Assembly: GCF_053078305.1 (NCBI RefSeq)
Contig: NZ_CP166879.1
Direction: 5' to 3' (one strand)
DNA length: 64,000 nucleotides
The notes below the pieces were generated by a model that had not been told where the DNA came from, made no database searches, and worked only from the letters and a program-made list of their open reading frames with translations. This document shows, in pieces, positions 19,471 through 19,579 of this stretch. A program made the translations under genes and the position numbers. Numbering within the stretch: the stretch's first letter is position 1; each line of letters opens with the position of its first letter.

Positions 19471-19579
19471 TTAACCCTCCGTTTCACTTCTCAGTTCTGC
19501 CATTCCATTGCCGTTGATAAAGAGTTTATCTGTTAATCTGTAAATTGATATGAAAACTCTTAGCAAACAGGATAATACA

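Follow-up and report, generated by a model that had tools for sequence, protein, structure and literature searches.

Register, conservation and promoter geometry of the PhoP box in the menE-pmrD spacer of Escherichia coli

PhoP control of pmrD and the E. coli locus

PmrD links the PhoP/PhoQ system, which responds to low Mg2+, to PmrA/PmrB, and through this link it exerts control over the lipid A modification encoded by the neighboring arn operon and, in turn, over resistance to polymyxin and colistin. The PhoP box of pmrD is the input of this connection between the two systems, and its correct placement matters for annotation and for interpreting promoter variants in clinical isolates.

The PhoP box of Salmonella pmrD, CTATTGCCGTTTTGTTTAT, which reads TATTGC-CGTTT-TGTTTA, is entered in the tabulation of Zwir et al. 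(2012; PMC3335776) as a site DNase I-footprinted by Kato et al. (2003). The same tabulation groups pmrD with mgtA, phoP and slyB of Salmonella as architecture I promoters, a class with 11-12 nt, and 12 nt in these four, between the box and the -10 element, and it gives box centres of -31 for Salmonella pmrD, -33 for Salmonella mgtA and phoP, and 27 for Salmonella yrbL, together with, for Salmonella pmrD, a 27-nt leader and 5 nt from the -10 element to +1. In earlier work of the Groisman group the Salmonella pmrD site was recovered only with sub-motif models. For E. coli, Fig. S2 of Harari et al. (2010; PMC2908699), whose PhoP sites were gathered from the literature and from the authors' previous work, carries the entry 'pmrD: CCGTTGAT---GAGTTTAT E. 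Coli'. The PhoP box of pmrD is already known, in that the E. coli site, the weak, 'sub-motif' nature of this site and the orthologous site of Salmonella have all been published, and the result presented here for this box leaves existing knowledge unchanged. A literal text search for the site sequence in the paper library consulted found no match.

The PhoP dependence of pmrD transcription is taken here from published work, which bears out the statement in a first-pass annotation of this DNA that pmrD is activated by PhoP. A passage on K. pneumoniae pmrD (PMC2565834, citing Winfield and Groisman 2004) describes low-Mg2+, PhoP-dependent expression 'like the S. enterica and E. coli orthologs', and the K. 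pneumoniae pmrD promoter is shifted by PhoP in a gel-shift assay. In S. flexneri, pmrD is down to 0.42-0.48 in a phoPQ deletion mutant.

The DNA analyzed is a stretch of 64,000 nt (the window) that belongs to Escherichia coli. A 601-nt query around the menE-pmrD spacer is 100% identical to strain A16 and is matched in 5,419 of 5,426 complete E. coli genomes, the annotation reading menE / pmrD / arnF every time. The spacer is bounded by the following features, to which the translation signal of pmrD is added.

18115-19470, + strand: menE (o-succinylbenzoate--CoA ligase) coding sequence, from the list of open reading frames and from RefSeq, as annotated in E. coli records that are identical or nearly so
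19569-19572, + strand: Shine-Dalgarno sequence AGGA, 7 nt ahead of the pmrD ATG, read from the sequence
19580-19846, + strand: pmrD coding sequence, 88 aa, ATG at 19580, from the open reading frame with its translation and the RefSeq annotation

With the menE stop codon as its left border, 19471-19579 is the exact non-coding spacer between menE and pmrD, 109 nt long and 35% G+C. Homologs of the encoded protein contain the Pfam domain PF11183 and bear the name PmrD. Next after pmrD come arnF, arnE and arnT on the opposite strand; pmrD (+) and arnF (-) are convergent, and their 3' ends overlap by 7 nt (19840-19846). Two terminator-like sites were detected in the scanned region, neither of them in the pmrD-arnF overlap: both are intracoding, one in pmrD at 19690-19708 (+) and one in arnF at 19947-19932 (-). 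At 19550-19552 the window strain and O157:H7 have an in-frame ATG 30 nt 5' of the accepted pmrD start, which extends the open reading frame to 98 aa. This codon is GTG in K-12 and four other strains, and the ATG, which is without a Shine-Dalgarno sequence, lies 3 nt 3' of the start site mapped in K-12. Several PmrD database entries exceed 88 aa (103-124 aa).

Register, score and conservation of the PhoP box

The spacer was scanned with a Salmonella weight matrix built from 24 footprinted activation boxes (Zwir et al. 2012, Table 1, PMC3335776) and with an E. coli weight matrix built from 19 sites (Harari et al. 2010, Fig. S2, PMC2908699), with pmrD excluded from both. The elements discussed in this section are listed below.

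19511-19529, + strand: PhoP box of pmrD, 19-mer CCGTTGATAAAGAGTTTAT, placed by the weight matrices, the published site and the collinear Salmonella box
19512-19517, + strand: distal (upstream) half-site CGTTGA, which aligns with Salmonella TATTGC and Citrobacter CATTGC and is unchanged in six diverse E. coli strains
19523-19528, + strand: proximal (downstream) half-site AGTTTA, whose GTTTA is invariant in 11 of 11 aligned sequences
19523-19540, + strand: string flagged in the first-pass annotation, agtttatctgttaatctg, consisting of the half-site AGTTTA and the 12 nt that lead from the box to the hexamer TAAATT

The box reads CGTTGA-TAAAG-AGTTTA, a direct repeat with a 17-nt core at 19512-19528, and 19511-19529 is the sole register in the spacer with a positive score on either weight matrix. 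It is also the published E. coli site, since CCGTTGAT, the three omitted bases and GAGTTTAT together match 19511-19529 of the window letter for letter. The K-12 site of Harari et al. (2010) is the same in the window strain; the spacers of the two strains differ at 19494, 19550 and 19577, all of which lie beyond the box.

The first-pass annotation had reported a possible, imperfect PhoP box-like repeat in the menE-pmrD spacer and had read it in the string agtttatctgttaatctg, which is indeed present there, at 19523-19540. The observation is partly confirmed and its interpretation partly supported: a PhoP box exists, in another register. The box at 19511-19529 (+) overlaps the string by six bases, and these first six bases, AGTTTA, are a true half-site and the only portion of the string that belongs to the box; the resemblance of the string to the PhoP direct repeat goes no further. 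The partner half-site as first read (ctgttaatctg, downstream) is wrong, the real partner being CGTTGA at 19512-19517, upstream of AGTTTA. The mapped PhoP site is therefore only half displaced from the string, the two having one half-site in common.

It is extremely unlikely that the flagged string is itself the PhoP site, formed by AGTTTA with a downstream TGTTAA or TAATCT in 19523-19540. AGTTTA is a good half-site, and TGTTAA (19532-19537) resembles a second one by eye, but the two start 9 bp apart, not 11. The register that does have the 11-bp period, AGTTTA-TCTGT-TAATCT, is negative on both matrices (-5.3 bits, Salmonella; -1.4 bits, E. coli), as is every register inside agtttatctgttaatctg, on either strand. 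Moreover, it is the upstream partner that is used in the published E. coli site and in the footprinted Salmonella site, and a box at 19523-19539 would sit on the -10 region, 8 nt from the start at 19547, which is the position of a repressor and not of an activator. The region seemed to be a direct repeat because it contains an 8-bp tandem repeat, ATCTGTTA/ATCTGTAA, at 19528-19543 (+), in which 7 of 8 positions are identical; its period is 8, compared to 11 for a PhoP box, and it shows less regularity in E. albertii, Citrobacter and Salmonella.

The box at 19511-19529 scores 11.25 bits on the Salmonella matrix, which ranks it 13 among 127,964 window positions, and 13.7 bits once repression boxes join that matrix. 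On the E. coli matrix it scores 9.5 bits (rank 30), below every training site of that matrix (minimum 11.7), and it has three mismatches to (T/G)GTTTA-N5-(T/G)GTTTA. The pmrD box is thus weak, or 'semi-conserved', with a score that equals or falls short of the lowest among known sites, and this score by itself is modest evidence. Counting mismatches is without discriminating power, since KGTTTA-N5-KGTTTA with at most three mismatches occurs 204 times in the window compared to ~140 times in shuffles.

These properties raise the alternative that the spacer has no functional site, that the box is a chance likeness in AT-rich DNA, and that the response of pmrD to PhoP is indirect. A score of 11.25 bits is attained by 2.2% of dinucleotide-preserving shuffles of the spacer on the + strand and by 4.9% on either strand. 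A search of S. flexneri permitting at most two mismatches to the consensus does not have pmrD among the target operons that it names, as the three mismatches of the box would lead one to expect, and a higher-scoring match inside menE (19242-19258) indicates that strong matches arise by chance. Against this stand the positional orthology to a footprinted site, the half-site cores that are both invariant over three genera while their flanks have diverged, the correct 12-nt spacing to a -10-like hexamer, and the inclusion of the site in a published set of PhoP binding sites; when the box score is combined with a -10-like hexamer 11-13 nt downstream, only 0.18% of shuffled spacers qualify. Chance likeness is accordingly very unlikely, and the assignment of the PhoP box is made on the published site, the orthology to the footprinted box and the geometry, beyond the score.

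The pmrD loci compared are those of E. albertii, another Escherichia, four Citrobacter amalonaticus-like genomes, and S. enterica subsp. arizonae and diarizonae. A genome scan with a PmrD pattern gave 10 loci, from Escherichia, Citrobacter amalonaticus and S. enterica subsp. arizonae and diarizonae, with no Klebsiella and no subsp. enterica among them, so that the footprinting alignment is shallow. The alignment of E. coli with Salmonella is gapless from CCATTCCAT through the -10 region, and it places E. coli CGTTGA-TAAAG-AGTTTA collinear with the footprinted Salmonella TATTGC-CGTTT-TGTTTA. Among 11 sequences the distal TTG is invariant or almost so and the proximal GTTTA is invariant, whereas divergence is seen in the 5-nt spacer and in the flanks; both half-site cores (TTG, GTTTA) and the key -10 positions are invariant across Escherichia, Citrobacter amalonaticus and Salmonella.

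A register shifted by 6 nt was considered and rejected. It would match ATTGCCGTT at 19507-19515 of E. coli to the same letters in the Salmonella box, implying an insertion in E. coli, and it scores below -18 bits. No such insertion is called for by the ungapped alignment, in which CCATTCCAT on the upstream side and GTTTA and TGTAA on the downstream side stay in register in all genera.

Within E. coli, six strains with 92-98% identity have a constant distal half-site and constant -10 candidates, both of the latter being unchanged. The only differences in the box are the change of TAAAG-A to TAATA-G in the two divergent strains of the six, and these changes affect bases of the 5-nt spacer and the first, degenerate position of the proximal half-site. 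The resulting second allele, CGTTGA-TAATA-GGTTTA, has a higher score, 16.9 bits. Of 5,426 complete E. coli genomes, 4,219 carry the 52-nt core of the window allele (19498-19549), 4,187 of them identically, and 1,122 carry the second allele (970 identical); jointly the two box alleles are present in 5,341.

Other matches to the PhoP matrices in the window may be recorded here. The match inside menE, GGTTTTGCAGGTGTTTA at 19242-19258 (+), departs from the PhoP consensus at one position; its 11.9 bits on the E. coli matrix, which rank it 11 in the window, exceed the score of the real pmrD box. This match is intracoding, some 290 nt upstream of the site at which pmrD transcription starts, and is probably due to chance. 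In the nudI-yfaZ spacer, TTATTTAAGAAGTATTTAG at 28716-28734 (+) is among the three best matches on three of four matrices (14.0-14.5 bits) and stands in direct orientation ~110 nt ahead of the start of yfaZ, which encodes an outer-membrane protein. To our knowledge there is no report of PhoP regulation of yfaZ. The top match on two matrices (14.5-14.8 bits) is CTATTTTGTTATTATTTAA at 52537-52555 (-), in the AT-rich spacer that precedes the autotransporter gene yfaL and reversed relative to that gene.

Candidate -10 elements and start sites

Downstream of the box the spacer contains two candidate -10 elements and two positions at which pmrD transcription may begin.

19531-19539, + strand: candidate extended -10 element TGTTAATCT (TG, one base, and TAATCT at 19534-19539), proposed from spacing
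19541-19546, + strand: candidate -10 hexamer TAAATT, starting 12 nt past the box and collinear with the Salmonella -10 element TAACGT
19547, + strand: start site G19547 of K-12 MG1655, with a 33-nt 5' UTR, from Table S1 of Kim et al. (2012; PMC3415461)
About 19552, + strand: predicted E. coli start, collinear with the S1-mapped, PhoP-dependent start of Salmonella pmrD and transferred via the alignment

The arrangement has the architecture I feature, namely a single box in direct orientation (+) with TAAATT starting 12 nt on. In the whole window two strong PhoP-matrix matches have a -10-like hexamer at this spacing, and the pmrD box is one of them. T1, A2 and T6 of TAAATT are invariant in the alignment. 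A -35-like TTGATA inside the box is separated from TAAATT by 21 nt, the same distance as that between TTGCCG and TAACGT in Salmonella. A generic sigma-70 scan returned no -35/-10 promoter on the + strand, its only hit in the region being on the minus strand, and the lack of such a pair on the + strand is expected of an activator-dependent promoter.

The reading that we prefer, with a probability of about 0.88, is that the spacer at 19471-19579 is the E. coli pmrD promoter and that it is activated by PhoP in low Mg2+ through the box CGTTGA-TAAAG-AGTTTA. Low Mg2+ would be sensed by PhoQ, and phosphorylated PhoP would bind the repeat as a head-to-tail dimer. The box would take the place of the -35 element, a properly spaced -35 being absent, and PhoP would recruit or position RNA polymerase at the adjacent -10 element as a class II activator, in the manner of Salmonella architecture I, so that the pmrD transcript would have a short leader, about 28-33 nt in length. 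We infer both the class II mechanism and the identity of the -10 element used by PhoP in E. coli, and for the latter the mapped K-12 start has to be considered.

Kim et al. (2012; PMC3415461) give a single pmrD start, at NC_000913 2371593 on the minus strand with 11 reads, as the final base of the 51-mer CTGCCATTCCATTGCCGTTGATAAAGAGTTTATCTGTTAATCTGTAAATTG, in which the sequence upstream ends ...CTGTAAATTG. Their cells were grown in M9 with 2 mM Mg2+, which is not PhoP-inducing, and the strongest start per 10 bp was retained. This start, G19547, directly follows TAAATT and is located 5 nt upstream of where the collinear Salmonella start would fall; the base is altered in one of the six E. coli strains. 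Because G19547 adjoins TAAATT, that hexamer cannot be its -10 element. The candidate that fits it, as judged from spacing, is TGTTAATCT, which ends 7 nt ahead of G19547. The distance from the box centre to G19547, as mapped at 2 mM Mg2+, is -27, closer than the -31 to -33 of Salmonella pmrD, mgtA and phoP and equal to that of Salmonella yrbL.

The placement of the K-12 start directly after TAAATT points either to TGTTAATCT as a second -10 element or to two overlapping promoters, and the tandem repeat ATCTGTTA/ATCTGTAA does put two -10 candidates 7 nt apart. It is possible, although we regard it as doubtful, that E. coli pmrD either has two overlapping promoters that derive from this repeat or is activated from an unusually close box (centre at -27). 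In the version with two promoters, a basal, PhoP-independent promoter may use the extended -10 element TGTTAATCT and start at G19547, and a PhoP-dependent promoter, of common inheritance with Salmonella, may use TAAATT and start near 19552. If this were true, PhoP occupying -35 to -19 on the basal promoter would switch the start site and would not simply turn transcription on.

The question of a PmrA/BasR box and comparison with known promoters

The stretch downstream of AGTTTA, ctgttaatctgtaaatt, might instead bind a second regulator, for example PmrA/BasR in a negative feedback on pmrD. The Salmonella pmrD promoter is bound and repressed by PmrA, and ctgttaatctgtaaatt contains one GTTAAT hexamer and several invariant positions. 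Feedback repression would also fit the behavior of an mgrB deletion in E. coli W3110, in which pmrD mRNA is at 0.31 while phoP and phoQ are up about 7-fold (PMC8355897). However, the spacer contains no PmrA/BasR box above chance when YTTAAK-N5-YTTAAK is searched with at most three mismatches: such matches number 374 in the window compared to 370 expected, and near pmrD there are only two, each with three mismatches and both on the - strand. As a positive control, the arnB box CTTAAGGTTAAGTTAAT at 27289-27305 (-) is found with one mismatch to YTTAAK-N5-YTTAAK. The invariant positions of ctgttaatctgtaaatt are explained by the two -10 candidates, and the literature reports PhoP and PmrA sites together for Salmonella pmrD but, in E. 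coli, only for yrbL. A second regulator bound at ctgttaatctgtaaatt is therefore improbable to a high degree, and the stretch is better read as spacing and -10 region of the PhoP-activated promoter. The value of 0.31 in the mgrB mutant is the opposite of simple PhoP activation, and neither the sequence in general nor a PmrA box in the E. coli promoter accounts for it.

The near-perfect PmrA/BasR box CTTAAGGTTAAGTTAAT belongs to the spacer between the divergent genes arnB and ais, where it precedes the annotated start of arnB by ~105 nt. The PmrA/BasR box resembles the PhoP box in being a direct repeat of hexamers with an 11-bp period that is recognized by a regulator of the OmpR family in the same pathway; the flagged string differs from it in having one GTTAAT without a second half-site at the right spacing. 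In S. enterica subsp. arizonae and diarizonae, ATTAAT-GTCAG-GTTAAT, ~35 nt upstream of the PhoP box, is by its sequence the apparent Salmonella PmrA box, a separation of roughly 38 bp between the box for PhoP and that for PmrA having been reported for Salmonella pmrD. It aligns with unrelated sequence in E. coli, and this putative PmrA box, with the pattern ATTAAT-N5-GTTAAT, is missing from the E. coli spacer.

In several other respects the E. coli and Salmonella pmrD promoters are alike. They share the menE-pmrD spacer, the strand and the orientation, a distal half-site of the form xxTTGx and a proximal half-site containing GTTTA, a distance of 12 nt from the box to a TAAxxT hexamer, and a short leader. 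Within the box there are differences: the distal CGTTGA of E. coli is nearer the consensus than the TATTGC of Salmonella, the first base of the proximal half-site is A in E. coli and T in Salmonella, and the 5-nt spacer is wholly different. Compared to the canonical E. coli boxes of mgtA, phoP and yrbL (Kato et al. 1999), the pmrD box likewise is a direct repeat of hexamers with an 11-bp period in direct orientation, and like them it overlaps the -35 position of a promoter in which a usable -35 element is absent; it departs from these canonical boxes in its three mismatches to (T/G)GTTTA-N5-(T/G)GTTTA.
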